The translations under genes and the position numbers were made by a program. The notes below the pieces were generated by a model that ran no database searches, was not told the origin of the DNA, and saw only the letters and a program-made list of their open reading frames with translations. DNA of 39,080 nucleotides from a virus (lineage: Duplodnaviria; Caudoviricetes): IMG/VR virus record IMGVR_UViG_3300031784_000077, positions 1-39,080 of that record, one strand, 5' to 3'. Positions 6,255-37,364 of this stretch are shown piece by piece; the first letter of the stretch is position 1, and every line of letters begins with the position of its first letter.

Positions 6255-9200
6255 TTAGATGGCTTTCTGCGCGACAGCCAAGGCACTTGCTATAGCATCA
6301 TCGCGCTCATTTAGCAGGGGTTCCGTTGCCTTGTTCGAAACCTTTTTAGCCATTTTCGCTTTGTTCATCAACGCCTGAATAAGCGGCTCAATCCCGCCAA
6401 CCTTGCCGCCAGCCTTGTATGCAGCGCGACCGCCACGGGCTTGTGGTTGAGGTTGTTGTTGTTGTTGTTGTTCAAACTGGGCCGCTAATTTTTCAGCATC
6501 AGCTATGTTCTGGCTTTCCATCATTGCATTTGCATCTGAATCATTCTGAGCAGTTTGCTTCGCATCCTGATAGCCAGAAACAACACCAGATGTGCGAAGA
6601 GGCGCGTTAACAGTCCACTGAGGTATGTCCACTGAGTATTTTGGGGCCCCACCAAGTTCGTTGCGAAGCAAGCCAAGATCGGCAGCCCCTCGACTTGCGG
6701 GCCCGCTACCAAGCGCGCCTGTTCCCGCCATATAACCAAGCGTTCCAGTCGGGTCTATGGTACTCCCGGCAAGGTATCCGAAGGTGCCCCTTATAAGCGG
6801 CTTGGCCCTTTCGTAAATCCGTTGGCCAACACCCATGTTTGCGTCTAAATCACGGACAAGCTTAAAAGGCTCCCTTTGCGGGATTGCATTAGGGTCAGTA
6901 GCCGCCCGCGCAGCCATGCTCCGCTCAAAAAGGTTTGCTTCGTTGGGGTCAAGGATATTGCGGTTTCCGTAGGTGCTATGAAAAGCCGCAAGATCCTGCG
7001 GCGAAGCGCCCTGTTGGCCATACCCTGTACGGATATAATCTTGAACCAAGGTTGGGTCTGTCATAAGGCCGCGATTAGGGTCTGTAAGGACATCAATCAG
7101 GGCATTGGGGTTTTGATAAGATGGCGTGACACCCTTTTCCCCTACAAATTTATCCTTGAAGACGTCGCCAATGTAAGTGGCGGCATCTGGCTCACTTGAA
7201 AATACAAACCTGCCAGTCGCGGGATCGCGCTGTGTAAGGTCGAACGTCCTTTGCGCCGCTGTCCGAACAATATCGTTCGCGGGCGTTGGAGGGGCATCGA
7301 TGCCATTCTGCCGCCAGTTGCGGAATTCCTTGCGCGCCTCCGCCAAGTGGTTAATGGCTTCGTTAATTTTCGGTCCATTGTGCGTAGGAGCCATGTCAAT
7401 GGCTGTATTATCTAGCGCATCAACCTGTGCCATGGCGGCTTTGTAGTCGCCCATATTGCCACTTTGGTAAGCCTTCTGGGCAACCGCGTTCAGCCGCTTG
7501 CGCTCAATTTCCAAATTTTGCAAATTAAGCATGTTGCGCGGGGGCGCTTGACCAGCCGCAATACTCGCAGCGTTTTCTTGATTTAGATACCGAACCAAGT
7601 CGGGCAGCGCTGGCTTCCCGCTGTTGGCGTCAATCCAAGTGGGAATTGCGGGATTGTAAGTGTATGTTGTATTAATCCCCGGTATGGTCGCGGTTAAGGG
7701 TTCAACGGTCTGACCGTAGCCACCAATGTTTTTTATTGAATTATCAAAAGACGCCGCCGAATTTGGGAAAAGGCTGGGGTTTTTGGCCACATCTTGCGCG
7801 CTCAAGCCCTGCTTGCGGAGCGCGGCATCATATTCCTGTTGGAACTTTGTTACAAAGGCGTCGGGGTCAGTGTAAACACCGCCACCTTCGGTTTCCGCAG
7901 CTTTATCATATGACCACTGATATGCATTCCGCTTCTCAAGATCGGCCCGAATAAAATCTTCAGCAATGTCTTGGTAAGTTACAGGGTTGGCTCCCTGACC
8001 GCCCAAATTTTCGCTAAGGTAATCACCCAACTGGTTGGTGGTTGAGGTCCGCGCCGCTGCTTCCCGGTTGCTGGAAAACAAACCGCTTTGCCCCATGCCC
8101 TTGTTTTGCTGTAGAATGCCCGGAGGTTCATTCGTGGCTGTTGACCGGGTAATGCCTATGGCATCTTTGGTGTTTCTGGCGGGAACGCCAGTTAAGCCGC
8201 CGCCCTCTGGCGCTGCGGTGCGAATAGCACCCTCAGCCAAAATAGCAGGCGTGATGCCCTTACCCTTACGGTTGATTGTCTGATCGATTACGCCGCCAAT
8301 ATAAGGGGGAGCATAATTCTCGCGCTTAAAGCCACGTCCTTGGTCTTCAAGCGCATCGAATGCTGCGTTAGCTTCCTTCGAAAATGGGTTGTCAAATTTG
8401 TCGCCAGTTTCTGCCTGAAACTGCTCCCAAATGCCCCGTTGGGTCGGTATCGATATAATCTGCTCAGCAGGCACACCTGAATCAATAAGCTTTTGCTCTT
8501 CAGCCTTCTGGAAGGCACCCCACTCGCGATTAAATTCTGGGCTATAGATACTGACTTTGTATGGGGATATTTGGCGCGCGGTATTGACGCCGGTTTCTAT
8601 AGCCTGAGCGCCCACTTTGCCGACAATAGGCGTTATGGGATCAAGACCCCTGCCAGTCAGATCAAGGGCTTTGCCGGTCACGTCGAGCGCTTTTGTTAAT
8701 CCCTTCCCCACGTCGGTGGCTGCGGCACTTCTGTACACATCACGCGCAACTTTGGCCTTATCGACCACAGCGGTTCCAAAATCACGAACTGCCTGCATGG
8801 CTGAAGCGGTGCCCGAAAATTCTTCTGGGGAAACCAATCTTGTGCCCTTGAGGCGTGAAAGGTTTTGAACAAGCGATAGGCCATTCTCAAGGCCAGATGC
8901 CTTTCCTAACCATGATGCAACCTTAGAAAAGCCAGCACCGCCGCCAACAAAAAGTGATCCAACCTCAGCGGGGTGCTGCGTAAGGTCACGCGCAAAACCG
9001 TTCCAATCGAATGACAATTCCTTTGTCTTGGGGTTGTATACCCCATAAAGGGCCAAGGCCATTTTATAGTTTGCTAAATCCTCTTGGCGTCTTTTTGCAG
9101 CCGTTTCGAGGTCCATTTTGTTGGCATCGACAGGATCAACAAACGTAGGGGCAAAGGGGTTGAATCCCATAGGCATGAGCCCCGACTGCCACCCATTCCC

Positions 9201-9635
9201 ACCACTAAGAAAAAATGTGTCGCGATATTGCTCAGGCGTCATGCCTGCGGCAAAAGCACCGCGCTTTAAGGAGTCAAGAAACGCAAGCCCCTGCGGTGCA
9301 TCTGCAAGACCCTTTACGGCATCACGCGCAACCTCAAGTGGGTGCCAGTTGTGTACGACGTTGTGCCCAGCCTCATAAAGAGTAAGGGGTGGAGACTCTT
9401 GTGTACGGTATCCATATTTGGGGTCGATAAGGGCGTTGCGCACCTGAGCCTTGACGGGTTCGCCGTCAGGCCCAATAATTGGCTGACCGTTTTCATCCAA
9501 CTGGACTTCTTCATAAAGCTTGCGCTCTGATGGCTTAGCTTTAAGCCATTTTCCAACCATATCTACGGCGCCAAGTAACCCTTGGGCCTCTAGCTGATCC
9601 GCAGTTCCGATTGCTGGTACATCATCTTTAGCCAT
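6255..9635 (-). CDS. Large putative internal virion / DNA ejection protein (1126 aa)
   Basis: Long ORF with AGGCG upstream, following the 1849-aa protein in the position of podoviral ejection genes; predominantly helical composition; C-terminal QARGG / YKAGGKV motifs. No catalytic motif recognised. Confidence 0.6.
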   Translation of the reverse strand: MAKDDVPAIGTADQLEAQGLLGAVDMVGKWLKAKPSERKLYEEVQLDENGQPIIGPDGEPVKAQVRNALIDPKYGYRTQESPPLTLYEAGHNVVHNWHPLEVARDAVKGLADAPQGLAFLDSLKRGAFAAGMTPEQYRDTFFLSGGNGWQSGLMPMGFNPFAPTFVDPVDANKMDLETAAKRRQEDLANYKMALALYGVYNPKTKELSFDWNGFARDLTQHPAEVGSLFVGGGAGFSKVASWLGKASGLENGLSLVQNLSRLKGTRLVSPEEFSGTASAMQAVRDFGTAVVDKAKVARDVYRSAAATDVGKGLTKALDVTGKALDLTGRGLDPITPIVGKVGAQAIETGVNTARQISPYKVSIYSPEFNREWGAFQKAEEQKLIDSGVPAEQIISIPTQRGIWEQFQAETGDKFDNPFSKEANAAFDALEDQGRGFKRENYAPPYIGGVIDQTINRKGKGITPAILAEGAIRTAAPEGGGLTGVPARNTKDAIGITRSTATNEPPGILQQNKGMGQSGLFSSNREAAARTSTTNQLGDYLSENLGGQGANPVTYQDIAEDFIRADLEKRNAYQWSYDKAAETEGGGVYTDPDAFVTKFQQEYDAALRKQGLSAQDVAKNPSLFPNSAASFDNSIKNIGGYGQTVEPLTATIPGINTTYTYNPAIPTWIDANSGKPALPDLVRYLNQENAASIAAGQAPPRNMLNLQNLEIERKRLNAVAQKAYQSGNMGDYKAAMAQVDALDNTAIDMAPTHNGPKINEAINHLAEARKEFRNWRQNGIDAPPTPANDIVRTAAQRTFDLTQRDPATGRFVFSSEPDAATYIGDVFKDKFVGEKGVTPSYQNPNALIDVLTDPNRGLMTDPTLVQDYIRTGYGQQGASPQDLAAFHSTYGNRNILDPNEANLFERSMAARAATDPNAIPQREPFKLVRDLDANMGVGQRIYERAKPLIRGTFGYLAGSTIDPTGTLGYMAGTGALGSGPASRGAADLGLLRNELGGAPKYSVDIPQWTVNAPLRTSGVVSGYQDAKQTAQNDSDANAMMESQNIADAEKLAAQFEQQQQQQPQPQARGGRAAYKAGGKVGGIEPLIQALMNKAKMAKKVSNKATEPLLNERDDAIASALAVAQKAI

Positions 9636-9646
9636 TACGCCCTCAC

Positions 9647-12600
9647 CTACCGCTGCATTGTTTTACTTGCCATTTTTCCATTTGCGTCCCGATAGTACAC
9701 TTTTGTACCATTCTTAACAGTGGGATCATTGACGGCTGCTTGATACGACGGGGCATAAACCATCGGATTTTGGGGTGTGCTATTAGGCAAATCCGAGATA
9801 CCCGGTGCCCTTTTTGGTCCAGACGCCTTTTGTGAGCCGGATGTGCCGGGGACTGCCGCTGGTGCCCCTGCCGGACTCGCTGGCGGCGTAGCTGGCGTCG
9901 CAGTCGCAGTCCTAGTATTGGCGTTGTTAATGGAGGGAGTCGCGGTCGGATAGAGCGATTTTTTGGCTCGTTCAAGGCGCTCATCAGCGGTTCTAATATT
10001 CCGGTCAAGAACACCAACGACTGCCGCAACGGCAGCCGTGCTATTTTCAACGCTAAGGGACGCAGGCGAAATACCGGTACCTTCAAGCAGCGTGGAAAGC
10101 GCCGCAATCCTTTGCGCGTTTGTCTGACCTGAGCCAACAATATTCGCTGGAGCGCCATTTGCCAAAGCGGCGCTTGCAACCCTATTCCAGAATGATGTTG
10201 TTGCGCCAAGCTGAAGTTCCTGTCCGGAATCAAGCAATTTCTTAATGTCGCCAACGACATTCCTGATTGCCTCATTCTTAAGGACAATATCCTCAGCCTT
10301 GGCATAAGTGTCAAGGTTGGCAGAGCCAATGTTAGCGACACTGGTATTGAATGCCTGTAGCTTAGGATCAGCGACTGCGCGGAATGCGTCCATATACGCC
10401 TTATCGGCTGTTGCGTATCTGGATTGAGCGGCCACAAGACGGGTTTGTGCCAATTCTATGTCACTTGGAGAAGCATATTGACTGCCCAGCAGCTCTTGTT
10501 GGGCAGCCATGTCAGCTTGTGCCTGTGCGCGTTCATTAAAGTATTGGGCGACATTAGGGTTCGCGTTTGCCCCAGCGACGATGCCCTCAACGCTATTGTC
10601 GCTGGGAGGGGTTGCCGACTTAAACTTAACCACATCTCGCACAGTTTTGGTTGGGGTATACAACTGAGCGCCTTCAGGGACGTCAGGCATGTATTGACCA
10701 GAACCCGTAAGCATTTGCTGTATCATGGCTTGCTTTTGACCGGGCGTAACCAAAAAAGTGTCTTCGCCGGGAGGAGCGCCGGGCTTGGTAAAGGTAAAGT
10801 TCTTACCATCAGGCGCAAGGCGGAAGAATTGATCAGCCAATGTCCTTGCAACCTCAGCCTGCTTGGCAGCGGCAGCCTGACGGACAGGAAGCTGCTTGTT
10901 GCGCTCATTAGCCAAGTTTTGATACGATTGCGCACCAGCGCCAAGGCCAGTCGCGAGTGCTACGCCAAGGCTGCGCGTAGGCGCAGTGCCCATGGCAGCA
11001 ATACCGGTCAGTAGTGGGATGATCGATCCAGCAGACCCGCGCTTAATGCCTTTGAAAAAGGGTTCAGACAGGTAATCATAGCTGTAGGGCGCAACTGCCC
11101 CACCCTCAAGGCTGACAGGATTTTGCCTACCACGACCAAAAATAGTTTTGCGCATGGCTTCCTGCGGCTTGCCACGAGGGTCTAGCTTTGCGGTTACCAC
11201 AATGTCATCCACTACCGGTGGCTTCTTTTCAGCGTCTTCCACTACCGGTGGCGCGACACCAGTGGCGTTAGGTTTGGCATCGGCTGGCGTGGAAGCAGCA
11301 ACGGAAGTGGCATCAGGGCCCGCTGCACCAAGACCGCCCTCTTTGCGCCTTGAAGGCTCTGGAGTTACTGTCTGGATTGGGGTTGCCGCAGTAATTTCTT
11401 CAGCCAACTCTTCTTCAGTTTTTGGAACGCCGCCATCCTGATACCCATCACGCCCTGCAAGGCCACCTGAAGCAAAGCCAATTTCCTTGGCGCGCTTTGC
11501 CATGGTGTTGCCGGTCCAGTTAATGAGTTCGCCAACGGTGCGGATCTTCCTTTTCGCAAACACATCTGGGTTGGCAGTAATTGCGTCTTTATCAACAGCC
11601 AATTCAACTGGCGTATTGGGGTCTGCCCTCAGCGCCCTTACAGCGCCAGAAGGCCCAAGGAAGTGGGCCAAATAGACGTTACGGGCATTTGTATCGAACC
11701 CATATTTCCTGAGATGTTTTGCGTTGTCCGCAATAATCATTGGGCCGAATTGAAGGTTAAGCTTGCGACCTTCGGGCGTGGTGCGAAGAGCCCTAATGCC
11801 TGCATCGCCCAATTCACGAGCCTGCTGCGGGAATGCCTTTTTAAAATAACTGACGTATGTGTCCTTAACAATTCCATACCTACCGAGCGCCGAAGAAGTC
11901 TTGGCTTGACCGTCCCCTTCAGCCGCAAAGATAATCTTTGCAATTCCGGACAGGTCTTTGGGCAAAGATGCCGGTACTGGCAGCAAACCGGCAGCCTTGG
12001 GCGCACCAGCAAGACCCTGATCACGGGGCGCATTTTTGCGGGCCTCCAATTCTTCGCGGAATTTTTTATTGGATGCCGCAAAGTTATCGACACGCTGTGG
12101 TGCAGCTTCAGGCTTGCGGCGCAGCAAAGACTCAAAGTGGCTATCGTTGCCAGCTATCAAATCTTCAGGATCTAGGTTGAAATCAAAGCCCTGTTCATTT
12201 TCTTCAGGAGCAGCCATTTCAGCACCCATCAAGCCAGCGGTTGGCTCACCACCCATCGCGAAATGACCGCGCTTAGCAGCGCCAGAGGTTGCCTTGGCGT
12301 AATCGACAGTCTTGTACTTGCCAGCCAAGCCAACAGCATGAGGCTTATGACCCTCAACCTCTTGAGCAAGAAGCCCGATTTGGGTGCGCGGATCACCCTT
12401 ATAGTTATAGCTATGGACAATCTGGCCGTCAAAAAGCTTACCAATTGGCTTGATGTTTTCTTTCAGGCGCTTGTCGGAGAACATGGCGGCTACCTTAGCC
12501 ACAGTGCCTGCAATTTGGGCAACCTTGGCAGTCTTGCTGAGTCCGCTTTCAGGCTTTTCAAGCGAAGCCGCAGTCATTGGCTGACGCGAGGCATCCAAAT

Positions 12601-15196
12601 CATCCCCTTCAGGAATGTCCAGACCCTGACCACCATAAGGCGTACCGCCGGTTGAAAAGAGACCAATCTTTTGCCCAAATTTACCCAATTTCATTCCGGT
12701 ATCGGCCACATTGGCTACCTTGCTAAGCTTGTCGAGACCGCTTTGCTGACCCGGAAGATTGCCAGCCGTCATGGGGCCGTTTGAGCCACCAGCAAGGGCA
12801 TCCGTTGGGATGTCTAATCCCTGACCGCCGTAAGGGATGCCGCCGCCCATGGCATAATCCTCTGCCCTTTCGGTATCAGATAAAACGCCTATTTCCTTCA
12901 GAAGATCTTTCGAAATACGATATTTGTCGTCTTCAGGTTTTTTGTCATCGCCCCAAGCGCCTATGCCTTCGCCAAACTTATTGATGCTGCTACCAAGATC
13001 AACCATGGTCTTGGCCTGCTCAGCACCAGTGGCTCTCTGTGGCAGCGCGGAGGGCGTCATTAACTGGCTTGGAGCGAAGCTTGACTGCGGCACAAGGCCA
13101 CCGCCAGCATTTGGTCCGCCAGCGTAAATCCCGCCACTGGTAAGCGGGGCGTACATAGCCTGCTGCGCCTCAAGCATTTGCTGCATTACGGCTGGATCGT
13201 ACCCAGCAAGACCGCCGTTGGAGAAGCCCTGACCTGCGTTATATGGCATTACGCTGCCACCAGCGCTTGCAAGGCCACCAGAAGCCATATGGCCACGGTC
13301 GGCGGCATCTTCAGTTGCCTTGTCGTAGTCAACGGTCTTGTAGCCACCAGCAAGGCCAACAGCCTCCGGATGATGCTTCTGGACCTCTTGCGCGATCAGA
13401 CCGATCTGTGTGCGCGGATCGCCCTTGTAGTTGTAGCTGTGGATGGTCTGGCCATCGAAGGTCTTACCGACGGCCTTGATGTTTTCCTTCAGACGTTCGT
13501 CAGAGAAAAAGCCACCGGGCTGTGTAGTTGTGGTTGTAGAGCCTTGCGCCGTACCGGTGCCAAGAGCGATGTTGCTTGCCAATTGAAGCTGCTGGTATGG
13601 CAGCGATTGAGCCTGAAGGAATTGATTGTACAGAGCATTGTTTTCAGCCTGCTGAGTGGCTTGCTGTGCTTGACCTGCCGTCATTTGGGCAGCAGCGCCT
13701 TGCAGGGCCGCAGTTTGAGCGCCTGTGCCAAGGGCAGCAAGCTGGCTGGCTGTGTTGGCTCCTATGTTGTAAAGCCCACTGCCCAATGCCGCTGATGTTC
13801 CCGCTGCCGTGTTTCCTTGGTTAAATAGTTGCTGACCAAGAGCAGCCTGCTGTTGGGCTGCTGTAGCGCTTTGTGCAAACTGTTGCTGACCCAAAGCGGC
13901 CTGCTGCTGGGCTGCGGTGGCGTTTTGTGCAAACTGCTGTTGACCCAAAGCGGCTTGCTGAGCCGCTGTTGTGGCACCCTGATTGAAGAGTGTATTGCCC
14001 ACAGCAGATTGCTGCTGGGCAGTGTTTGTACCTTGGCCGTAAACCTGCTGCCCAAGGGCGGCGGTATTTTGGCCAGTGGTGTTGTTCATGTTAAAGAGTT
14101 GCTGACCAAGAGCGCCCTGCTGCTGTGCGGCGGCAAGCCCTTGTCCGAAGCCCTGCTGGCCAATGGCAAGCGCCTGTTGCGCAGCCTGCTGTTGCGCAGC
14201 CCGGTTGGCTTGAGAGGCACCAAGGTTAAGCTGCTGTTGCTGCTGGGCTGTGTTAAGCGCCTGCCCATAGCCCTGATTAAGAAGGCCAGAAAAGATTTGA
14301 GCGTTAGCTAAATTCTGCTGCTGATTCAGGTTCGCCGCAGCAATCCCTCCACGGTCGCCGCCAAAAGCACCAGAGCGGATGGCATTACCCATCTGCCCAG
14401 CCTGCTGTTGCTGGTTCTGCTGATTAAGAAGGCCAGCGGTGCCCTGCAAAACGGTGCCGAGGAACGGCGACATGTACCTGTTGATCTCATCAGCGCCCAA
14501 TTCAGTCGGGTTCACCGCCTGAGCGCCGCTGGTCATGTAATTAGTGGCTATACCCTGATACGGCTGCGCGCCAGCAAGTGCCTGTTGGGTTCCGGCCAAG
14601 GACCGATTCGTTATATCACTACCCTGCGCCAATCCCTGTTGGTATAGGCCACCAGCGGCTTGGTTGTAAGGCTGCGCCGACGCATAAGCTGCGCCCAAAT
14701 TATTGAGTGCGTTACGCTGTATCCCTGATCCCTCGCCATACGCTGCGTTGAGCGTGTTTGAGGATTGCCCAGCATACTGGTTTCCGACGTTCAGAGCATT
14801 ATTTAAACTACCAGATGACTGGGTTGCGTACTGGTTTCCGGCGTTCAGAGCATTATTCAAACTAGCGGATGACTGGTTTGCATACTGGTTCCCAGCAGTT
14901 ACACCTTGGTTCAGTTGGCTGGTGGCATTTTGATAGTAAGGAGTCACCCCTTGCTGAGCGTTATTAAGCTGGTTTGTTGCATTGCCGTAATATGATTGGG
15001 CCATATTCGATGCGGCATTCGTGTTAGCAATACCTGCCTGTTGCGTAGCCGTCAGCGGGGCGACAAACTGCCCTTGGTAATATTGAAAGGGCTGAGTGGT
15101 GACCGTATCAGCACGGGCGTTGATCGCATTATACCTAGCCAACACCTCTGGTGGGATGCTGATTGCCTGTGTTGACCTAGTGGTTTTACCGCCCAT
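9647..15196 (-). CDS. Giant internal virion / ejection protein (1849 aa): Gln-rich 18-aa repeats, two S74 domains, lytic transglycosylase-like domain
   Basis: N-terminus MGGKTTRSTQ...VAPLTATQQAGI...YMSPF of pilot/ejection type; FFSDERLKENIK and MFSDKRLKENIK S74 domains; AAEGDG..SSALGRY...YLAHFLGPSGA lysozyme-like domain. Confidence 0.8.
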   Translation of the reverse strand: MGGKTTRSTQAISIPPEVLARYNAINARADTVTTQPFQYYQGQFVAPLTATQQAGIANTNAASNMAQSYYGNATNQLNNAQQGVTPYYQNATSQLNQGVTAGNQYANQSSASLNNALNAGNQYATQSSGSLNNALNVGNQYAGQSSNTLNAAYGEGSGIQRNALNNLGAAYASAQPYNQAAGGLYQQGLAQGSDITNRSLAGTQQALAGAQPYQGIATNYMTSGAQAVNPTELGADEINRYMSPFLGTVLQGTAGLLNQQNQQQQAGQMGNAIRSGAFGGDRGGIAAANLNQQQNLANAQIFSGLLNQGYGQALNTAQQQQQLNLGASQANRAAQQQAAQQALAIGQQGFGQGLAAAQQQGALGQQLFNMNNTTGQNTAALGQQVYGQGTNTAQQQSAVGNTLFNQGATTAAQQAALGQQQFAQNATAAQQQAALGQQQFAQSATAAQQQAALGQQLFNQGNTAAGTSAALGSGLYNIGANTASQLAALGTGAQTAALQGAAAQMTAGQAQQATQQAENNALYNQFLQAQSLPYQQLQLASNIALGTGTAQGSTTTTTQPGGFFSDERLKENIKAVGKTFDGQTIHSYNYKGDPRTQIGLIAQEVQKHHPEAVGLAGGYKTVDYDKATEDAADRGHMASGGLASAGGSVMPYNAGQGFSNGGLAGYDPAVMQQMLEAQQAMYAPLTSGGIYAGGPNAGGGLVPQSSFAPSQLMTPSALPQRATGAEQAKTMVDLGSSINKFGEGIGAWGDDKKPEDDKYRISKDLLKEIGVLSDTERAEDYAMGGGIPYGGQGLDIPTDALAGGSNGPMTAGNLPGQQSGLDKLSKVANVADTGMKLGKFGQKIGLFSTGGTPYGGQGLDIPEGDDLDASRQPMTAASLEKPESGLSKTAKVAQIAGTVAKVAAMFSDKRLKENIKPIGKLFDGQIVHSYNYKGDPRTQIGLLAQEVEGHKPHAVGLAGKYKTVDYAKATSGAAKRGHFAMGGEPTAGLMGAEMAAPEENEQGFDFNLDPEDLIAGNDSHFESLLRRKPEAAPQRVDNFAASNKKFREELEARKNAPRDQGLAGAPKAAGLLPVPASLPKDLSGIAKIIFAAEGDGQAKTSSALGRYGIVKDTYVSYFKKAFPQQARELGDAGIRALRTTPEGRKLNLQFGPMIIADNAKHLRKYGFDTNARNVYLAHFLGPSGAVRALRADPNTPVELAVDKDAITANPDVFAKRKIRTVGELINWTGNTMAKRAKEIGFASGGLAGRDGYQDGGVPKTEEELAEEITAATPIQTVTPEPSRRKEGGLGAAGPDATSVAASTPADAKPNATGVAPPVVEDAEKKPPVVDDIVVTAKLDPRGKPQEAMRKTIFGRGRQNPVSLEGGAVAPYSYDYLSEPFFKGIKRGSAGSIIPLLTGIAAMGTAPTRSLGVALATGLGAGAQSYQNLANERNKQLPVRQAAAAKQAEVARTLADQFFRLAPDGKNFTFTKPGAPPGEDTFLVTPGQKQAMIQQMLTGSGQYMPDVPEGAQLYTPTKTVRDVVKFKSATPPSDNSVEGIVAGANANPNVAQYFNERAQAQADMAAQQELLGSQYASPSDIELAQTRLVAAQSRYATADKAYMDAFRAVADPKLQAFNTSVANIGSANLDTYAKAEDIVLKNEAIRNVVGDIKKLLDSGQELQLGATTSFWNRVASAALANGAPANIVGSGQTNAQRIAALSTLLEGTGISPASLSVENSTAAVAAVVGVLDRNIRTADERLERAKKSLYPTATPSINNANTRTATATPATPPASPAGAPAAVPGTSGSQKASGPKRAPGISDLPNSTPQNPMVYAPSYQAAVNDPTVKNGTKVYYRDANGKMASKTMQR
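13730..14180 (-). repeat. Tandem 54-bp / 18-aa Gln-rich repeat (consensus QQQAALGQQxFxQxATAA), about 8-9 copies
   Basis: QQQGALGQQLFNMNNTTG / QNTAALGQQVYGQGTNTA / QQQSAVGNTLFNQGATTA / AQQAALGQQQFAQNATAA / QQQAALGQQQFAQSATAA / QQQAALGQQLFNQGNTAA read directly from the translation. Confidence 0.9.
14550..15020 (-). repeat. Second 18-aa periodic block (LNNALNAGNQYATQSSGS type)
   Basis: LNQGVTAGNQYANQSSAS / LNNALNAGNQYATQSSGS / LNNALNVGNQYAGQSSNT with degenerate flanking copies; near-identical 54-bp DNA units around 14770-14900. Confidence 0.85.
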
Positions 15197-15709
15197 TTAA
15201 TGCTCCGTTCTGGAGTAATCCCCAGTTTTCGCGCCGTATAGGAAAAAAGCACCGCTTGGCTTCCCAAACTGGCGCTCATACATCCGTACCTTAGCTTCCG
15301 TCCTGTTATTGGACAATACACCAATTATGAGGGGAATTCCAAGGGTATCAGATACTTTCTTGCTAAATTCGCACAAACGCCTTGCGCGACCGCCTTTTGC
15401 GCTGCGAAATTCAGGGTGAATGAAGATGGCTTTTTCCTCAACGACTGGCGCTTCTGAGTACCACATTGTGCCAATTCGAAGGACCACAATGCCTTCAATC
15501 GCTCCGTCTTTTGGGCCAATTAACCCCACAATACCGTGATCTTGGCACAGGGCTGGGTATATTTCTTGAACTAATTTTGCTGGACTTGCTTCAAGGAAGC
15601 CATTTTCTTCAGTCGCCTGCATGGCAACAACCATAATTTCGTCAAGATCCTCAGGCGTACCAACGCGAATATAAAGGTCATTTGGATTGGTTTTATCTGT
15701 CATAATCAA
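15197..15709 (-). CDS. GNAT-family acetyltransferase-like protein
   Basis: IRVGTPEDLDEI start and IFIHPEFRSAKGGRARRL acetyl-CoA-binding-like motif, C-terminal RMYERQFG; lies just before the ejection genes. Confidence 0.7.
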   Translation of the reverse strand: MIMTDKTNPNDLYIRVGTPEDLDEIMVVAMQATEENGFLEASPAKLVQEIYPALCQDHGIVGLIGPKDGAIEGIVVLRIGTMWYSEAPVVEEKAIFIHPEFRSAKGGRARRLCEFSKKVSDTLGIPLIIGVLSNNRTEAKVRMYERQFGKPSGAFFLYGAKTGDYSRTEH

Positions 15710-16962
15710 TCTTTCTTAGGTCCGGGTAAATTCTTTAATGTATTAACGGTTTCAGCGCGCATGCGCTTAACGAATTCATCCAATACGCGATGGCCCGTGT
15801 CAAGGTCGCCGCCACCAGCCTGCATTACCTGCTCAGGCGTAACGACATATTCCCCGCCAGCAGCGATGATCGGCACTGTCGCAGCGCCACCTTCGGCTTT
15901 GCCGGGCAGCGGCTCACCGTAAGGTCCGCCTTCGACGCCGTAAGGCTCTTCCTGACCGGTGTATGGTACGCCACCGAAAATGGTGCGCATGTGCTTAAAG
16001 CCAGCCATGGTATTGCCTTCGCCCATGGCGCTGATGATGTCGGCTGGGATGACATAGGAGCCGGACGCCACATGCATTGGCAAGTGGTCTGTGCGGCCCG
16101 CTACAGCACTGTGGATGGGGCCGCTGTGGACCTTTGTGCTGACCTGTCCGCCTGTGGCGCGGGCTGTGCGCGCAGACTGCTTAAACGCCTCCGCTGTGGG
16201 TGCGCCTTCGCTGCCGGGTTTGCGCATGCGCTCCTTTGAGCCATGCTTAATCCGCTCACGCTTTGCGTGAATGTTGGCGTAGAGACCGCCGCCGTAGCGC
16301 TTGCTAATGTCGGGATCTTCCGGATCAAATTGACCATTGTTAAGAGTTGGGGACTTTATCTGATTAGGATTGAAAACAACATACTCTGGTGAGTTGAAGC
16401 CGTTTCCATCAAAAATGATGCCGTCATGATCAGGCGTCAAAGCCTCTAATGCTTTCCGCTTTGCCTCTGGGAATGACATGCCCTGCTTGGTATATTTCTT
16501 AATTGCAGCAGTTGTGTTTAGGGGATTTTCTATTCGGAGATGGGCAGCAACCACATCTCCACGCGGCACCTTAATGCTTGCCCCCTTTTCTCTAGTATAA
16601 CCAGACGCATTGAGAGGGTCTGAAGTAAAGTATGTTCCGGGAACATCGCCTTGACCTGACCTTTTTGTAACTCGACTTGTGTCAAATACCCTAACACCTT
16701 TGGCGGTGCTGCCGTGATAGACAACCTTTGGATTACCCTCTTTGTCCGACACTTTGCTTTTACCAAACCAGCGACGCAAATTCTCTTCGCGGCGCGGATC
16801 GCCATGAGTGATGTCATCTTCATTCCGCCCGCCAGACGCCCGCACCTTGCGCGCAGTTGAAAGCGCAGCAGCGATGCTTTGGTCGCGAGGGTGACCAGAT
16901 TTAATCATCTCAGCTATATTTTTGCTGATGACTTTTTGTGATTTACCGGGCTTTAATGGCAT
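15706..16962 (-). CDS. Multi-cassette virion protein containing an ADP-ribosyltransferase-like (polyvalent-protein type) domain
   Basis: RWFGKSKVSDKEGNPKVVYHGS...GTYFTSD...HLRIENPL...DGIIF...EYVVFNPNQIKS matches the ART-like domain of large polyvalent proteins; flanked by RASGG and KRYGG. Confidence 0.75.
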   Translation of the reverse strand: MPLKPGKSQKVISKNIAEMIKSGHPRDQSIAAALSTARKVRASGGRNEDDITHGDPRREENLRRWFGKSKVSDKEGNPKVVYHGSTAKGVRVFDTSRVTKRSGQGDVPGTYFTSDPLNASGYTREKGASIKVPRGDVVAAHLRIENPLNTTAAIKKYTKQGMSFPEAKRKALEALTPDHDGIIFDGNGFNSPEYVVFNPNQIKSPTLNNGQFDPEDPDISKRYGGGLYANIHAKRERIKHGSKERMRKPGSEGAPTAEAFKQSARTARATGGQVSTKVHSGPIHSAVAGRTDHLPMHVASGSYVIPADIISAMGEGNTMAGFKHMRTIFGGVPYTGQEEPYGVEGGPYGEPLPGKAEGGAATVPIIAAGGEYVVTPEQVMQAGGGDLDTGHRVLDEFVKRMRAETVNTLKNLPGPKKD

Positions 16963-27983: not shown

Positions 27984-27996
27984 ACCGCTCTCCATA

Positions 27997-28891: not shown

Positions 28892-29806
28892 TTAAGACGT
28901 TGGGAACGAACCGAAGATCGAACGCCAGTTGTAATAGCCGAAGCTATAACGCTCATAACCCTTGACCAAGAGGTTGTCGGTTACGAAATCGACTTGCATG
29001 TCGGTTTCGAACTTGACGCGCTCCATGTACGACAGACCGTCGATGTTGGTCAGAAGGAACCAAGCGTAGGCCGACGTCAAGAAGTCGTTGACCATGTAGC
29101 CTTCTGGCAGACCACCGCTGGTGCTGAGGATGGCGTTGACGTCGTTGTCTGCTGTACCCGGACGGAGTTCCGTCTTGGTGAGGCGGATAGCGACAGGCTC
29201 AAGCTGTGGCGGAACGATAAGCTTACGGCCACGGGCGAATACCTTCAGACCAGCTTGATCCTTGAAGTTCGTGCGGATCGAAATCATCGCGTTCAACAAG
29301 GTAGCTTCGTTAAGGTCAACCTGAGTGGTTGGCGTGTTGGCAACCGTACCACCGTCAATTGGGTGAGCAGTCGAGCAAAGCGCTACGCCGTCACCGCCAA
29401 TGTTGGCGTTGTAGGTTGTTGCCGTGTTCAAGATGTTCGCACCGTAGATTTCCTTGGTCTGTTGGAATGACTCAATCAGGCCGAGGTTCGATGGTTGGAA
29501 CTGGGTCTTGTACAGGTTATCGTCGATGGCTTTACGCGTAATTGCATAGCCGAGAGCAATTTCGTTATGCTCTTGGTTGTATACATAACGCTCACCAGCG
29601 CCGTTATCGAAAGACGTTTGACCGCCTTCAGTCTTCAACTGAGCAAGGCCGAGGTAACGCATTTCAGCGGTACGTTCGAGCGCCAGCTTCGAATCATGCT
29701 TTGTGAAGATCTTGTCGTACTGAGATGGGATCATCTCGTACTTGCCTTCTACACCCCGCAAGCCGGGGAGCAGAAGGTCTTTAATTGCTGATAAATTAAC
29801 AGCCAT
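28892..29806 (-). CDS. Major capsid protein (HK97 fold, Mu gpT-like)
   Basis: LLLPGL...KTEGG...IALGYAITRKAIDDNLY...GGDGVALCSTAHP...KLIVPPQL...ERYSFGYYNWRSIFGS; size, position and motifs fit a major capsid protein. Confidence 0.9.
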   Translation of the reverse strand: MAVNLSAIKDLLLPGLRGVEGKYEMIPSQYDKIFTKHDSKLALERTAEMRYLGLAQLKTEGGQTSFDNGAGERYVYNQEHNEIALGYAITRKAIDDNLYKTQFQPSNLGLIESFQQTKEIYGANILNTATTYNANIGGDGVALCSTAHPIDGGTVANTPTTQVDLNEATLLNAMISIRTNFKDQAGLKVFARGRKLIVPPQLEPVAIRLTKTELRPGTADNDVNAILSTSGGLPEGYMVNDFLTSAYAWFLLTNIDGLSYMERVKFETDMQVDFVTDNLLVKGYERYSFGYYNWRSIFGSFPTS

Positions 29807-32165: not shown

Positions 32166-32558
32166 TTACCAGATCATATCGGGATGTGGGACGCTGCCCC
32201 GGATGTTTGTGTCCTTTAGCGCACGGCAAAGCACGTTGTTGACGGTGATCGTCCAGCCATCTGACGGACGGTAAACAACCCAATCATGCAGCTTTACATC
32301 CATGTCGCGGAACCAATTGCCGTTGGGATCGTCAAAAGCTTCGGAACCCATTTTAACGACAAGGCCGACTTTGCTTTGGTGACGGTCTTCGTCACGGTGC
32401 TGATCCGGCAGGTAAATGCCGCTCTTGGTCTTTTCTGGGCGCAGATAAACGGCGACCACCACCTCGTTGTGGAACACCTTGTACTCTTCAATGTCGCCCA
32501 GCGCCTGAAGGATTACCTCCTTTGGGTCTTCTTCATGGGTCATATTCATATGTGGCAT
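32166..32558 (-). CDS. groES: Phage-encoded GroES-like co-chaperonin
   Basis: EKTKSGIYLP mobile-loop motif, KVGLVVKMG, VKLHDWVVY...GWTITVNN pattern of Cpn10. Confidence 0.8.
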   Translation of the reverse strand: MPHMNMTHEEDPKEVILQALGDIEEYKVFHNEVVVAVYLRPEKTKSGIYLPDQHRDEDRHQSKVGLVVKMGSEAFDDPNGNWFRDMDVKLHDWVVYRPSDGWTITVNNVLCRALKDTNIRGSVPHPDMIW

Positions 32559-32575
32559 CTAATTTTTCTCCATAG

Positions 32576-32773: not shown

Positions 32774-32784
32774 CGATAGGTCCT

Positions 32785-32830
32785 ATAAAATAAAATATTG
32801 GGCGACGCTCTTCCAACCAACGCCGCCCAA
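32785..32830 (-). terminator. Intrinsic terminator
   Basis: Minus strand TTGGGCGGCG-N13-CGTCGCCCAA followed by TATTTTATTTTAT, just after the stop at 32837. Confidence 0.75.
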
Positions 32831-32836
32831 ACTCAA

Positions 32837-34204
32837 TTACTTCTTGTGTTTTTGGATCTCCGTCTTTTCCAAACGACCCAGACCGCTACCAGCGCCTGCA
32901 TCCATGTCCTTGTACGAGCGATAGGTGCGGCCACCGCGCTTACGCGGCATTGGCTGCGGGCCAGCGCCCGGACCACCCATTGGAGGCGCAGGCATTGGGG
33001 GAGGCGGCATTTGCATAGGTGGACCAGCTTGTGGCTGTGGGGGAGGCGGCATCTGCACTGGCACACCCTGAGGTGCCGGTGCCTGCTGCGCATCGGGGTC
33101 CATCTGCGGCTGGCCTTTACCAGTTGCGATCACGATGTTGATATTGGTGCCGCTCTTTTTCTTCTTAGCGCGACCACCGCTGTTCATTTCAAGGCCAGCA
33201 AGGCTGCCACCATCGCGCTTTGCAATGCGACCGCCAACCTTTTCCTGCGTCTGCATTTCGCCATCCAGAGATGTAAGGCGACCGCCGCGCTTTTTGCCTG
33301 CGACTTCTGGACCGGCTGCTGGAGCGCCATCTTTCTTCTTAAAAAGCTTGTCGTATGCCAAGGCACCAAGACCGCCCATAAGGATTTCTGGGTTTCTTAT
33401 AGCCGCGCCAATAGCGCCGCCTTTAAGAGCATAATTACCAACATCTTTCAGAACGCCACCAAGGCTTTTGCCGGTGCGACCGCCCTTATTCAGACCCTTT
33501 GCCGAATGCTGCGTGTCGTGCTTCTTGTCCATCTTGGACTTTTCCCAATCCGACATCGACATGCCGTATTTTTTAGCAAGCTTCTTGTCCTGCGCCTCAT
33601 CCTTGGCAGAACCTTCCCAAGCGCGACCACCAGATTTACGCACGTTACGCATGTAAGCTGTTGCTTCTGATACAGTCTTTGGCGAAGGACCTGAGCGCTT
33701 GACTGGCGCTGGTGGGGCTTTCTTTGGCTTAGGCGCAGGGGTTGTTTGACCACCGCCGGGTACCATGCCGAGTTCCTCGTTGGTCATACGGCGACCGGAG
33801 TCAGTTGTGGGGCGCGTGGAAATGCCCTCCTCCATTGGTCCGCCATAGGCTTTTTTCACAGCCCGACCACCCGTTTTCAGGGCACCGACGTGTTTTTTAC
33901 CCTCACGGGCTTCGTTGGCGTCTTTGTAGTTGCGATTGACAAGAGCATCGACGGTAAGATGCTTGCTGCCTGAGCGCGGCTTCTTGCCTGCATGCTTCTT
34001 GGCGTCAGCGCCGGAAACAGCGACAACCTTTCCGCCCTTCTTGTAAGCGCGGCGTGAGATCGGGCGCATGCCGGTCTTGGCTTCGGAGTTCAAAACCTGT
34101 TCTGGACCATAGTCAGAAGCGTCAACCTTGCCCGACTTTGCTGAGGTTAAACGATGAATTTTTGCGCGCATTGCGCGACGAGCGTTGCGGGACATCTCTG
34201 ACAT
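32837..34204 (-). CDS. Highly basic, disordered protein built from GG-delimited segments (putative head cargo)
   Basis: Probable start ATG 34204 (CAGGAG RBS), 455 aa; at least 11 motifs such as YKKGGKV, LKTGGRA, RKSGGRA, LNKGGRT, KKRGGRL, RKRGGRT; Pro-rich C-terminal part. Confidence 0.75.
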   Translation of the reverse strand: MSEMSRNARRAMRAKIHRLTSAKSGKVDASDYGPEQVLNSEAKTGMRPISRRAYKKGGKVVAVSGADAKKHAGKKPRSGSKHLTVDALVNRNYKDANEAREGKKHVGALKTGGRAVKKAYGGPMEEGISTRPTTDSGRRMTNEELGMVPGGGQTTPAPKPKKAPPAPVKRSGPSPKTVSEATAYMRNVRKSGGRAWEGSAKDEAQDKKLAKKYGMSMSDWEKSKMDKKHDTQHSAKGLNKGGRTGKSLGGVLKDVGNYALKGGAIGAAIRNPEILMGGLGALAYDKLFKKKDGAPAAGPEVAGKKRGGRLTSLDGEMQTQEKVGGRIAKRDGGSLAGLEMNSGGRAKKKKSGTNINIVIATGKGQPQMDPDAQQAPAPQGVPVQMPPPPQPQAGPPMQMPPPPMPAPPMGGPGAGPQPMPRKRGGRTYRSYKDMDAGAGSGLGRLEKTEIQKHKK

Positions 34205-34271
34205 TACAGTCTCCTGTCTTACCGAATTACCGGCGAATAAAAGGTTCCACAAAATTGTGGCTGCAAGAGCA

Positions 34272-37200
34272 TTACCCTTTTTTCAAACCCTTTGCAATCA
34301 TCAAGGCGCTGCGGACTTTTCCGCCCTTCTTAAAGCCCCGCTCCTGCTTCTGGCGGCGGTCTTCCATGATGTTATCCAGCCATTCTTGTGTGGCGTCTTG
34401 GTATGGAACCTTGGTCATCAGGGACTGCTGGAACAAAGTCTGACCAGCAGGTGAGTCGTAATCAATTGCCTTTCCGCTTTTGTCCTTTGTTTTCAGTGTT
34501 TTAAAGAAATCACTGAACATAAGCTTTGCAGGGATTGGGACGCTTGACCCGCCCATATACCCTTCATCTTTAGAAGGAATAAGGGCAGGATAAGTTTTAT
34601 GCTTAAGATCTGGATTGGTTACGATGCGACCAGATGGCTCAACTTGAGAAAAAGCGCTGCCCGTTGATAGGCGCGGCGCACCAAGGAGTTCAGGTGTTGA
34701 CGCAGAAAAACGGACTTCGCCAATGTCTGGAAACCCAGCTTTTTGCCATTTTGAACTATCAATCTTTTTGGCGAAGAATGATGCATGCGTACCGGGCCTT
34801 CCAGCAAAAAACTGCTCAGCCTCTTCTGTATTCATAATCCCCGGCCACGCCATGGGATACTTTTTAGATGGCGGCAGCGCCTCACGCATCATGTCATCAA
34901 ATTCATCAATGTGCTTTTGTTGAATTGGTGAATGCGGGATCATGCGGAGGATCGGTTCATAGGCATGGTGCGATGAATCAACACTTCCAAGGCCCATTGC
35001 GACGTGCGTACCAATTGCAGGCGTACCCTCTGGCGTCTGCGATGCGATTTTTTTGGCAAGCGTTTTAGCTGCGCCGACGCGGTTACCGTATGCCGCAGGA
35101 TCGCGGCCCTGCGCAAACTCTGAACGCATAAATCCAGCGCCACCCTGCTGTTCACTGGGGTCGGTCAGATCTGTTTGACCTGATTTAAGCAAAACTTGGT
35201 CAGCGGGTGACAAGTCACCTAGGAATGGGAATATTCGCGAACCGCGACGCTGCATTTCCTCAAGGTCCGCCTCTTTGCTAGGAAGCATGAAGCCCTTCTT
35301 GATGATGGTTGATTCCATTTCCTCAAGCGGCTTGCCAAACTTGCTCATTTTGACGTTTCCGGCGTCCGGATAGGATGCAAGAACGTCGGAGCCCTTGATT
35401 GTAATCTTACGCGCAAGAGCGTGTTGAGCCCTTTGCAGGTATTCTTTAAACTTTTCAGGATCGACGCTTGAGTCGTTCAACCCCGCCATGCCGATTGTTT
35501 GGAATATCTTGGCAACTGGATGGCTGAGTATGCCATCCTCATCGCCATCGCCTTGCGCACCACCATTTGCAGCATGGTGCATGGCGCGCACAACGTCTTC
35601 GTGTGTGGTTTCGTCATTTCCAGCCTTGTCCCACACCGCATGGTGAGTGAGGTGCTGGTAATATGGCTTCAAATGCTCAGGAAGCGATAGGTCCATGGCA
35701 CTCTGGCGCGCCGCAAGCCGATCAACGGCTTCAACACCGCCTGCACCGCCCTTTTTAGCGATGTACTTGCTGGCTTCCTTTGTTGGACGCCCGGTGTGCA
35801 AGATAATCTGGCGCGCATCCAGTGTCGGCTGGTCGCCGCGACCCATAAGCGACGCAAGGAAACCAGACTTGCTGGGGCCGACGCCGCGAATGTGCTGCGT
35901 GAACGCCCGCCATTCTTCTGGGGTGCTTGCCATCAGGTGACCGGCATGAACAAGTTCAGACACCTGCTTTTCCTTGCCCGGAAGGTTAAGCGCAGCCCAT
36001 GTTAGAGCGTCAGGAATGTCTGTCTGGTGACGGCCAAATGGGGCCATAACCTTAATAGCGTCTTCGATTGCTGCCTGATGGATGTTGCCCTTTTCTGCGG
36101 CATCAAGATACGCCTGACCGGCTGGCGTGTGCAGCCACTCGCCAAATGCGCCTTCGGGGCGAATCTTCCCAGTCATTTCTTCCGGCAGATCAAGGCCAGA
36201 TGCGCGCAGCTTATTAACGTCTGCGGCCTGACGCTGGATGCTCGACCGGGTGATGGTGTACGCCTTAATCAAGTCGCGTGGCGTAAGGCCGCTGCTCCCG
36301 GCGCGCTGAGCGATATTGTCCATGAAATCGCCAAACTTTTCGACGTGCGAAGGAATTTCCTTCAAACCGCCAAGGCTTTCTTGGACGTCTTCAACCGGAC
36401 GCCAATTCCAGTCAGAAATGTGCTGCGTTTCTGGATCTTGGTATGCCTCAACGTCGCCGCCAGCGGCATAAGCATGGTCTTTGGGGTCGCCAAATACAGG
36501 GTTCTTGGCCAGAACCAGAGGCCCCACCTGAAGAACCTCCTCTGCCATGTGAATGGGCTTGCGGTGGTTGGAGCGGTCATAGAAATAGCTGTGACGCTCC
36601 GGGTCCATCCCAACTTGAACCCATTCAGGACTGTCCAAAGCATCTTTTGCCATTTCGTGGATGTCATCGACAGATGTCTTTTTCAGGCGTCCATCAATGT
36701 GCGCAAATGGCGACTTGGCGCGGCCCTTAGCAACGGCCACAGCCTGCGACTCAGGCATGTCAAATGTGGCGTCGGTGATGTGCGCCGCTCCCTGATGGGA
36801 GAAAGCCCTACCCCCCTGCAACAGGTCGTGCATGGTCGGCACCCAGACGCCATGTTTGGTGTATGCCGGAATGTCGAGGCGTAGACCAACAGGGTGGCCC
36901 TCCTGATATTCGTCAACGGCATTGATTTTGTGGTGCTTGTTGGTCGTAAGACCGCGCAGCATATCCTCTTCCGTAGCGGGCGCTGGGACACTTTCATAGG
37001 GCGTCACGGGCTTATGCTGGTCGATTAGGTTGTGGTAATGCTCTTGATCAAAGTCAGGTGTGCTAATGTTCTGGGCATATTCCTGAAGATCAGGAGAACG
37101 CCCCGCAATAACACCGCCAGCGGCGTATGTGTGGTCAGGTAAATCAAAAGAAAAAGGATCGTGCGACTGGAACTGCTCAAATGGATTGTCGGAACGTCGG

Positions 37201-37364
37201 GCAGGAAGCCTTCCACCCATGGAAAACTGAAGCGGTTTTCGCATTTCTTCGTAATCAGGCTCACCGACCTGCGGCAAAGGCACACGCGCAAAGTTTGGAT
37301 CGACCATGGCCGCAATATTTCGTGCGGTCATGATTGCTTTGCGGATAGCCTTTGGGTCTTTCAT
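34272..37364 (-). CDS. Polyvalent-type multidomain protein (1030 aa) including an HhH-GPD glycosylase-like domain
   Basis: Overlaps the portal stop; three globular-looking regions separated by YAAGG, YAAGG, HAANGG and FKKGG; the middle region has IRGVGPSKSGFLASLMGRGDQPTLDAR. Confidence 0.7.
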   Translation of the reverse strand: MKDPKAIRKAIMTARNIAAMVDPNFARVPLPQVGEPDYEEMRKPLQFSMGGRLPARRSDNPFEQFQSHDPFSFDLPDHTYAAGGVIAGRSPDLQEYAQNISTPDFDQEHYHNLIDQHKPVTPYESVPAPATEEDMLRGLTTNKHHKINAVDEYQEGHPVGLRLDIPAYTKHGVWVPTMHDLLQGGRAFSHQGAAHITDATFDMPESQAVAVAKGRAKSPFAHIDGRLKKTSVDDIHEMAKDALDSPEWVQVGMDPERHSYFYDRSNHRKPIHMAEEVLQVGPLVLAKNPVFGDPKDHAYAAGGDVEAYQDPETQHISDWNWRPVEDVQESLGGLKEIPSHVEKFGDFMDNIAQRAGSSGLTPRDLIKAYTITRSSIQRQAADVNKLRASGLDLPEEMTGKIRPEGAFGEWLHTPAGQAYLDAAEKGNIHQAAIEDAIKVMAPFGRHQTDIPDALTWAALNLPGKEKQVSELVHAGHLMASTPEEWRAFTQHIRGVGPSKSGFLASLMGRGDQPTLDARQIILHTGRPTKEASKYIAKKGGAGGVEAVDRLAARQSAMDLSLPEHLKPYYQHLTHHAVWDKAGNDETTHEDVVRAMHHAANGGAQGDGDEDGILSHPVAKIFQTIGMAGLNDSSVDPEKFKEYLQRAQHALARKITIKGSDVLASYPDAGNVKMSKFGKPLEEMESTIIKKGFMLPSKEADLEEMQRRGSRIFPFLGDLSPADQVLLKSGQTDLTDPSEQQGGAGFMRSEFAQGRDPAAYGNRVGAAKTLAKKIASQTPEGTPAIGTHVAMGLGSVDSSHHAYEPILRMIPHSPIQQKHIDEFDDMMREALPPSKKYPMAWPGIMNTEEAEQFFAGRPGTHASFFAKKIDSSKWQKAGFPDIGEVRFSASTPELLGAPRLSTGSAFSQVEPSGRIVTNPDLKHKTYPALIPSKDEGYMGGSSVPIPAKLMFSDFFKTLKTKDKSGKAIDYDSPAGQTLFQQSLMTKVPYQDATQEWLDNIMEDRRQKQERGFKKGGKVRSALMIAKGLKKG

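Follow-up and report, generated by a model that had tools for sequence, protein, structure and literature searches.

A Gly-Gly-centered peptide motif fences exchangeable cargo modules in head and ejection proteins of an HTVC023P-type podophage and may mark maturation cleavage sites

What does a short glycine motif do when it recurs, module after module, in otherwise unrelated proteins of one phage? The question is raised by virus record IMGVR_UViG_3300031784_000077, a stretch of 39,080 bases (here, the window; ∼67% of the genome) in which every gene is on the minus strand and which is the morphogenesis operon of an HTVC023P-type podophage. Six of its proteins carry a motif built around Gly-Gly. 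We found that this motif is a protein-level signal fencing swappable cargo modules, and that it co-occurs with a domain, GExV, which had escaped an earlier note on this DNA and which is the best candidate for a reader or protease of the motif. The six proteins are likely packed in the virion and injected, given their gene positions and the PHROG match of the N terminus of the largest one to ejection proteins. They are the following (all lengths in amino acids [aa]).

34272..37364, minus strand: 1030-aa polyvalent protein in the portal slot, with motifs at residues 47, 80, 299, 597 (degenerate), and 1011
32837..34204, minus strand: 455-aa basic protein (19% Lys plus Arg) with 10 motifs; median spacing in the family, 31 aa
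28048..28332, minus strand: 94-aa basic protein with three motifs, at residues 7, 39, and 63
15706..16962, minus strand: 418-aa protein in the slot between the nozzle and GNAT genes
9647..15196, minus strand: 1849-aa ejection protein with a P22 gp7-like N terminus by PHROGs and two internal S74 chaperone domains
6255..9635, minus strand: 1126-aa ejection-slot protein with motifs at residues 1065 and 1073, near the C terminus

A flanked Gly-Gly motif is enriched in six proteins

In its strict form, [FYMRKH]-[AKSNQ]-x-G-G-x-[VAILTP], the motif was counted 21 times across the six proteins compared to 1.8 ± 1.3 times in composition-matched shuffles, none of which (0 of 2000) reached 21. In 25 other genes, a background from which two Gly-rich fiber genes were excluded, it occurs twice compared to 1.0 ± 1.0 expected. 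The pattern was tuned on the window and its close relatives, and the enrichment persists in distant genomes, with 18 motifs compared to 2.8 expected in MW202545, 8 compared to 2.3 in psg01, and 7 compared to 2.1 in DSL-LC04. Bare Gly-Gly is only mildly raised in the six proteins (70 compared to 52.1 ± 5.8) and was therefore rejected as the signal in favor of the flanked motif. In de-duplicated relatives, an aromatic residue, Met, or a basic residue is found at −3, Ala or Lys at −2, and Val or a small hydrophobic residue at +2; Arg is frequent at −6.

The earlier note, made from the letters of the window alone, had spelled out 22 motifs, and all were found in the proteins it named and on the minus strand. 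Its hand count of about 33 is matched exactly by GG-x-[VALI] in the six proteins, but 16.3 ± 3.9 such matches arise in shuffles, and therefore about half of that count is chance. The recurrence it described holds against the composition-matched background in the strict form. For the 455-aa protein, where it had seen at least 11 motifs, the broader pattern [FYMRKHL][AKSRNQT]xGG gives 10, among 16 Gly-Gly positions overall.

The broader form was also counted in families of relatives. The excess over expectation was 7.6-fold for the 94-aa family, 6.5-fold for the 455-aa family, 5.0-fold for the 418-aa family, 3.9-fold for the portal slot, and 2.1- and 1.9-fold for the two ejection proteins. The ratio was 0.2 to 0.9 in the 197-aa, head-adaptor, 244-aa, nozzle, and collagen-fiber families. 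The portal (2.6-fold; 14 compared to 5.4 in 16 relatives) and the tail adaptor (3.0-fold; 13 compared to 4.3 in 35 relatives) also showed an excess, which probably reflects single conserved sites.

Selection acts on the peptide, because synonymous positions vary freely. Gly codons within the motif are as variable as those elsewhere, and even the commonest 9-mer is present at no more than 18 of 230 sites; the first Gly codon shows a modest shortage of GGA and GGG relative to other Gly codons. A DNA-level site of the type of the Chi-like octamers was rejected, since the signal is frame-locked to Gly codons and is explained by the peptide. In the 94-aa protein, two Gly-Gly pairs (residues 42-43 and 66-67) are retained without change by all 18 relatives aligned. 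The motif is real and widespread, the phages concerned being estimated at ∼18,000 IMG/VR stretches for the nozzle pattern. No published description of it was found in the open literature searched (subscription papers and figure images were outside coverage).

Modules are exchanged from motif to motif

Among 53 portal-slot proteins, a class that reaches 1710 aa, 34 of 103 internal homology breakpoints are at most 12 residues away from a motif compared to 9.5 expected; this class included nine misassigned fragments and HTVC023P slot genes, and the breakpoints are not independent. Over all five protein classes, 334 of 1200 breakpoints were near a motif compared to 202.7 expected. When the motifs were masked, the portal-slot signal remained (34 of 99 compared to 10.0), and decoy masks gave none (18 compared to 13.9, 11 compared to 12.3, and 8 compared to 13.1), which rules out attraction of BLAST alignments to the motif as its source.

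A good example of this is the 1030-aa protein, whose modules at residues 83-299, 305-600, and about 605-1010 are exchanged with relatives. Homology blocks shared with related stretches start or end at its motifs, at residues 1-305 for L009, 286-603 for L010, 305-614 for L031, and 305-1017 for MW202675, several of them at one junction.

36450..36470, minus strand: junction motif YAAGGDV at residue 299 of the 1030-aa protein, where relatives' homology blocks start or end

ART, GNAT, M15, HhH-like, and small basic modules are exchanged at the motif among related phages, and one MW202675 protein has GNAT, M15, and ART domains, each flanked by a motif on both sides. The 418-aa protein consists, in order, of a phrog_2423 piece with a terminal helix (described below), RASGG, an ART-PolyVal domain, KRYGG, phrog_16028, RATGG, and a doubled GExV domain.

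16327..16746, minus strand: ART-PolyVal cassette (Pfam PF18760, E 9e-22), residues 73-212 of the 418-aa protein, between the motifs at 41 and 221

This ART-PolyVal cassette recurs in portal-slot proteins of other phages, and the next cassette, bounded by KRYGG and RATGG, is found again within the L009 orthologue of the 455-aa protein. The 418-aa family includes a 193-aa MW202675 orthologue that lacks both inserts and a relative of 1500 aa, the largest found. At many joints (e.g., L009:2822-2923 and L031:721-822), a full motif is followed about 9 residues on by a degenerate one, a pattern that would arise if every cassette carried a motif of its own. The view of the earlier note that the motifs fall at domain borders and delimit swappable cargo is thus borne out. 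Of its domain labels, ART-PolyVal and both S74 domains were recovered by Pfam, but the HhH-like and transglycosylase-like ones had no Pfam or PHROG match.

The motif is also placed regularly behind internal chaperones. A motif lies 55 to 95 aa after the S-D-x-R-L-K start of 53 of 55 internal S74 domains (background, 10%; the orthologues are not independent) and after none of three C-terminal fiber S74 domains. In the 1849-aa protein, each S74 domain is followed by a motif (residues 637 and 979), and further motifs lie at 658, 781, 847, 1241, 1252, and 1284. Its S74 domains, at 13358-13504 and about 12287-12484 (minus strand), are each preceded by an intact F-S-D-x-R-L-K, and two autocleaving domains could split the protein into three parts. 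The MW202675 counterpart carries one S74 copy.

The 455-aa protein is likely an internal core or scaffold-like protein that, we infer, is cut to small peptides. At its C terminus (32837-33100, minus strand), a Pro/Met-rich low-complexity segment precedes a conserved C-terminal peptide, which is duplicated in L072 and is possibly a capsid- or portal-binding end.

The GExV domain co-occurs with the motif

15709..16143, minus strand: doubled GExV domain, residues 274-418 of the 418-aa protein; candidate protease or motif reader

This region consists of two copies of an element that lies behind an F-A-x-G-G motif in siphophage tape measures. A profile of 49 single-copy podophage elements matches Douge gp16 (E 9e-16), JBD30 gp46 (E 1e-6), and, weakly, lambda (E 1.9), and 599 phage records, mostly annotated as tape measures, match the element; the region of T5 pb2 downstream of its motif gave no match to the profile. 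A motif lies at most 45 aa upstream of the first element in 117 of 150 relatives, and F-A-S-G-G abuts the element in JBD30. The JBD30 authors call the element a predicted "hook" and, in the excerpts consulted, found no peptidase motif in it (PMC11445458).

Motif and element go together. We counted motifs outside the GExV protein in 97 nozzle-centered loci that extend 7 kb or more downstream. The 75 GExV-positive loci held 140 compared to 48.5 expected, and the 22 negative ones held 15 compared to 15.2; a stricter form of the motif gave 96 compared to 17.1 and 6 compared to 4.5, respectively. Among 12 near-complete genomes, the eight with the element had motif ratios of 2.1 to 6.7 outside the GExV protein (that of RW is not significant), and the four without it had ratios of 0, 0, 0, and 2.0. 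None of 16 other gene families showed this 8/8 versus 0/4 pattern, with a profile sensitivity that is limited in distant genomes, and other conserved head genes were therefore rejected as the reader. The SprT-like zincin of MW202675 was rejected as the protease, as it had no tblastn match in the other genome stretches compared (not all complete). The A-F-G-G of the first ejection protein was set aside because it is also present in GExV-negative loci. Phages like CRP-901 (L169 12276-13250 and L172 5529-6473) carry a single F-A-E-G-G, possibly a relic, in the GExV-slot protein though the element is absent.

In the 49 single-copy elements, an Asp and a Glu, at least 90% conserved, are the only conserved polar residues. 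In the doubled domain of the window, the first half keeps R-T-D292-H and the second half keeps G-G-E371. The same division was found in the 134 of 150 doubled domains that could be parsed, a set that is largely one clade: the first half keeps [ST]-D in 133 and never has the Glu (Ser or Ala instead), and the second half always has the Glu, mostly without [ST]-D (124). MW202545, only 27% identical, shows a similar split. Thus, the two halves may form one composite Asp-plus-Glu site across a twofold axis. The predicted structure (pLDDT 80, pTM 0.70) consists of two strand-strand-helix-helix halves. GExV is the leading candidate for the catalyst of a cut at the motif, an assignment held at well below even confidence.

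Outside boundaries fall before the Ala of the motif

If the motif is cut, where would the cut lie? Two boundaries in other phages bear on this. In T5 pb2 (AY543070, 1219 aa), the five-residue pattern occurs only at 138 and 1127, the latter being R-A-E-G-G-M-M. Linares et al. 2023 (PMC10038345) report, from proteomics and intact mass, a cut after R1127 that turns pb2 into pb2* and pb2C. The reported cut lies inside the same motif as that of the window, and the 92-residue product starts with A-E-G-G. There is one such site, near the C terminus of a tail protein, in T5, whereas the window has many sites over six head and ejection proteins plus a stand-alone GExV protein.

The second boundary is found in the crAss001 cargo protein C1 (gp45), which has x-[AK]-x-G-G at residues 206, 260, 329, 370, 424, 559, and 825 and whose gene occupies the slot after the muzzle/nozzle, as the 418-aa gene does in the window. 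Cryo-electron microscopy resolved a portal-bound piece, 425-552, and a tail-bound helix, 214-245 (Bayfield et al. 2023, PMC10172136; PDB 7QOG). The portal-bound piece starts exactly at the Ala of N424|A425-F-G-G, and 214-245 lies between two other sites. The four mass spectrometry peptide regions of gp45 named in the text of that paper span no motif site, and in the sections seen neither the motif nor cleavage of gp45 is described. As in the window, modules are fenced by the motif and indels run from motif to motif: in 120 near-identical gp45 copies (residues 200-560), this was true of 74 of 75 indels, representing three distinct events with one exception.

The register shared by R1127|AEGG of T5 and the N424|A425 boundary of gp45 suggests that a cut would likely lie before the Ala. 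The cleavage option of the earlier note is retained as the leading reading, but its register, after Gly-Gly as in adenovirus and African swine fever virus (ASFV), is probably not the right one: both boundaries precede the Ala. No clan CE gene was seen in the scans of the window, which covers ∼67% of the genome. In lambda gpH, motifs lie at 733 and 778, and a cut at 733 would release 12.5 kDa.

A terminal helix lies outside the outermost motifs

37320..37346, minus strand: N-terminal amphipathic helix, residues 7-15 of the 1030-aa protein, upstream of the first motif
34290..34316, minus strand: C-terminal amphipathic helix, residues 1017-1025 of the 1030-aa protein, right after the last motif, FKKGG

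These helices follow the pattern [VIALM]-x-polar-A-[LIM]-x-hydrophobic-[AST]-[RKQSL]. Of 34 complete portal-slot proteins (nine misassigned rows and the HTVC023P rows were dropped), 17 have a helix of this type at a terminus. It was also found at the N terminus of 28 of 36 members of the 418-aa family, and at the C terminus of 23 of 23 complete relatives of the 1126-aa protein, where it ends a conserved tail past the motifs. Apart from two single cases, it was not found at the termini of other families. Its position is beyond the outermost motif. Eight of 12 C-terminal helices are preceded by a motif within 45 residues (background, 14%), and 10 of 11 N-terminal helices are followed by one within 60 residues. 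As the pattern was drawn from the same proteins, the finding counts as a lead. The helix may be a removable loading tag, and it would fit the capsid-targeting role that the earlier note considered for the motif better than the motif itself does; targeting by the motif is kept as a rival below.

Proposed mechanism and alternatives

The reading that we favor, at slightly better than even confidence, is maturation cleavage of bulky-[A/K/S]-x-G-G-x-V on the N-terminal side of the Ala, which would free tags, enzymes, and chaperones and fragment the basic core proteins. Precursors would be loaded into the prohead by the short terminal helix. A cut between the bulky residue and Ala would remove this helix, free single enzymes and the internal S74 chaperones, and reduce the two basic proteins, of 455 and 94 aa, to peptides; every product would begin with A-x-G-G. 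A GExV homodimer, or here the fused pseudodimer, would unite an Asp with a Glu and would work in cis within tape measures but in trans in HTVC023P-type podophages. The repeated 15 to 21 bases encoding the motif would likely also serve as microhomology for the gain and loss of cassettes. The fuller proposal is that GExV is an undescribed two-acid (Asp plus Glu) dimer-site protease of a new fold reading bulky|A-x-G-G, a cis trimmer in tape measures and a stand-alone virion protease with a helical tag in HTVC023P-type podophages, with crassviruses using the same code and a different domain; this we put forward tentatively, as a possibility held at well below even confidence.

Several observations weigh against cleavage or against GExV as its agent. 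The portal slot of CRP-901 (L166 35175-45043) holds 13 annotated genes with no motif and no GExV gene; thus, cargo loading does not need the motif, and this slot is either a natural negative control or a case of a different tagging code. (Many of these genes are large, or small and basic.) No downstream motif was found in 11 of the 75 GExV-positive loci. The nozzle tree, built on 94 rows after three short ones had been dropped, requires only about six changes, and five independent pairs agree in direction in 3.9 on average, never opposite, with p 0.06 at best. In the GExV model, the linker with the cis motif is disordered, and searches with the GExV models (pLDDT 69 and 80) gave no Foldseek match at E ≤ 0.001 and best VIA Z scores of 3.4 and 3.2; a lack of structural matches is not in itself evidence of a new fold. 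At the position preceding the proposed cut, a broad range of residues is found (F/Y/M/R/K/H/N). The outside cases are also contested. The T5 site is disputed (PMC11937520): earlier work had placed it at V1148 ± 1, and R1127 is also a trypsin site. The crAss001 authors treat gp45 as one intact chain threaded through the portal (PMC10172136), and a domain border of gp45 would fall near a motif anyway. For lambda, the reported product is ∼14 kDa, more than the 12.5 kDa predicted from a cut at 733, and gpHC is placed by the authors from near residue 690. Finally, crassviruses pair the motif with CARG1, which is not detectably related to GExV.

This CARG1 domain (PF25725), the core of gp45, has an invariant G-G-x-H-E ... 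N-x-V-E-x-x-E in 7 of 7 members. An Atlas lead (0.83) linked it to GExV, but there was no Pfam match and the HHalign probability was <1% (with a shallow seven-sequence profile), so that identity of the two is not supported. CARG1 (L511 33257-33655, which is crAss001 gp45, and L512-L517) is itself motif fenced, and its His and three Glu are invariant in these seven distant members; it might play the role of reader or protease in crassviruses.

The same facts can be read without any cut. The motif might be a docking or sorting peptide bound by GExV, portal, or capsid, with chains tethered in the prohead or ejected in order. Co-occurrence with GExV fits binding as well as cutting, structure searches of GExV show no protease fold, and the dense arrays in small basic proteins suit multivalent binding; the intact reading of gp45 with its portal-bound CARG1 domain (PMC10172136) and the "hook" label of JBD30, for which excerpts report no peptidase motif (PMC11445458), point the same way. 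Yet a single tag per protein would suffice for docking, whereas motifs flank each module and a separate helix lies outside them; the cut reported for T5 and the edge of the gp45 density fall in the same register within the motif; and the motif follows internal S74 chaperones, where fiber S74 has a free C terminus. We regard docking as rather unlikely.

Less probable still, and by a clear step, is that the motif is a mere flexible hinge, spread through microhomology of its coding sequence during cassette recombination and read by no protein. The precise motif-to-motif indels of gp45, the tandem full-plus-degenerate motifs at many joints, and the avoidance of GGA and GGG at the first Gly codon would be natural under this explanation. 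It does not account for the free synonymous positions and the lack of a dominant DNA word, for selection at the non-Gly positions −3, −2, and +2, for the background level of the motif where GExV is absent, or for its retention in the 94-aa protein, which exchanges no large cassette. The proposal of the earlier note, a cut after the second Gly by an adenain/pS273R-type (Ulp1-like) viral protease, is very improbable. Gly-Gly is the sole invariant part of the motif, and the many-site basic core proteins resemble adenovirus core precursors. However, scans of the window (∼67% of the genome) with Pfam and PHROGs found no such gene, the MW202675 annotation shows none, the SprT-like gene of MW202675 has no counterpart in the other genome stretches compared (not all complete), and both outside boundaries lie four residues before the end of Gly-Gly.

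Gene map and head-operon context

Pfam and PHROGs label an SU10-type portal, GroES, the major capsid protein, two adaptors, fibers, the nozzle, GNAT, and ejection proteins. The portal, GroES, scaffold, adaptor, and nozzle match HTVC023P genes in the same order, and the major capsid protein is 91% identical to that of MW202675 and 42% identical to that of pelagiphage HTVC023P.

37361..39079, minus strand: SU10-type portal, its 5′ end cut by the window
28892..29806, minus strand: major capsid protein, with no strict motif
17315..19411, minus strand: nozzle/stabilization protein, the anchor gene of the co-occurrence test

A Pfam and PHROGs scan of the portal-to-adaptor genes, except a 65-aa open reading frame (ORF), showed no S77/S78/S80 or assemblin-type prohead protease gene, in agreement with the earlier note, which had recognized none in the window. 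The 304-aa major capsid protein matches a fused head-protease PHROG only over positions 440-639 of 644, which is its capsid half. No clan CE-like or other protease gene was found by Pfam or PHROGs in the window, which covers ∼67% of the genome, and the annotation of the complete relative MW202675 has no clan CE protease.

Among the neighboring genes, a GroES homologue (32166-32558, minus strand) and the 65-aa helical ORF just upstream are kept between the portal slot and the scaffold, and the pair is found in most relatives, motif positive or motif negative alike. A small basic DUF6321 protein (27714-27995, minus strand) was found in five of the eight genomes with the motif and in none of the four without it, and PHROGs also show it as a module within larger proteins. 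A 244-aa protein (25730-26464, minus strand) that adjoins the adaptor has a conserved, zinc finger-like N-terminal CxxC...CxxC domain and no Pfam or PHROG match. In the tail region, beside collagen-like and Gly-rich fibers, a glycosyltransferase-TPR gene (GT2; 20250-21326, minus strand) points to possible virion glycosylation.

Relation to known systems and implications

By architecture, the system belongs with polyvalent proteins; in its working, it would resemble T4 and jumbo-phage head maturation. Head maturation by T4 gp21, phiKZ gp175, and SPN3US gp245 relies on one protease, one short motif, removable tags, and heavy cutting of core proteins. T4 gp21-type systems cut after Glu and use an S77/S80-type serine protease encoded beside the capsid gene. 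In contrast, neither such a gene nor a cut-after-Glu motif was found in the window, the specificity would lie mainly after the cut, and the capsid protein has no strict motif. The adenovirus protease and ASFV pS273R are clan CE cysteine proteases cutting after or within Gly-Gly; Gly-Gly sites in basic core precursors are shared with the window, but register and enzyme are not supported here. Siphophage tape measures of JBD30 and Douge, and weakly lambda, have the same GExV element behind the motif.

With polyvalent proteins (Iyer et al. 2017, PMC5512222), the window proteins share the mosaic multieffector build with ART-PolyVal and InPase domains: they are mosaics of unrelated effector domains, including ART-PolyVal, that vary among relatives. 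The sections of that paper seen here propose domain release by peptidases (MPTase, assemblin-like, DD, and LonC) and give no glycine motif. MPTase, assemblin-like, and LonC domains had no Pfam match in 30 window proteins (from ∼67% of the genome) and 27 relatives. An M15 peptidase is found as cargo in MW202675.

The cutting of the lambda and T5 tape measures has been an open problem for 50 years, and its catalyst and exact site are given as unknown in the Ur-lambda paper (PMC12617516). For this cut, we propose bulky|A-x-G-G as the site and GExV, in which two residues could be mutated, as a candidate catalyst. For crAss001, a simpler reading is offered, in which separate gp45 fragments would lie in head and tail instead of one chain spanning 420 Å. 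The motif also supplies a rule for where cargo modules start and end, by which the single injected effectors in these genomes may be listed directly.

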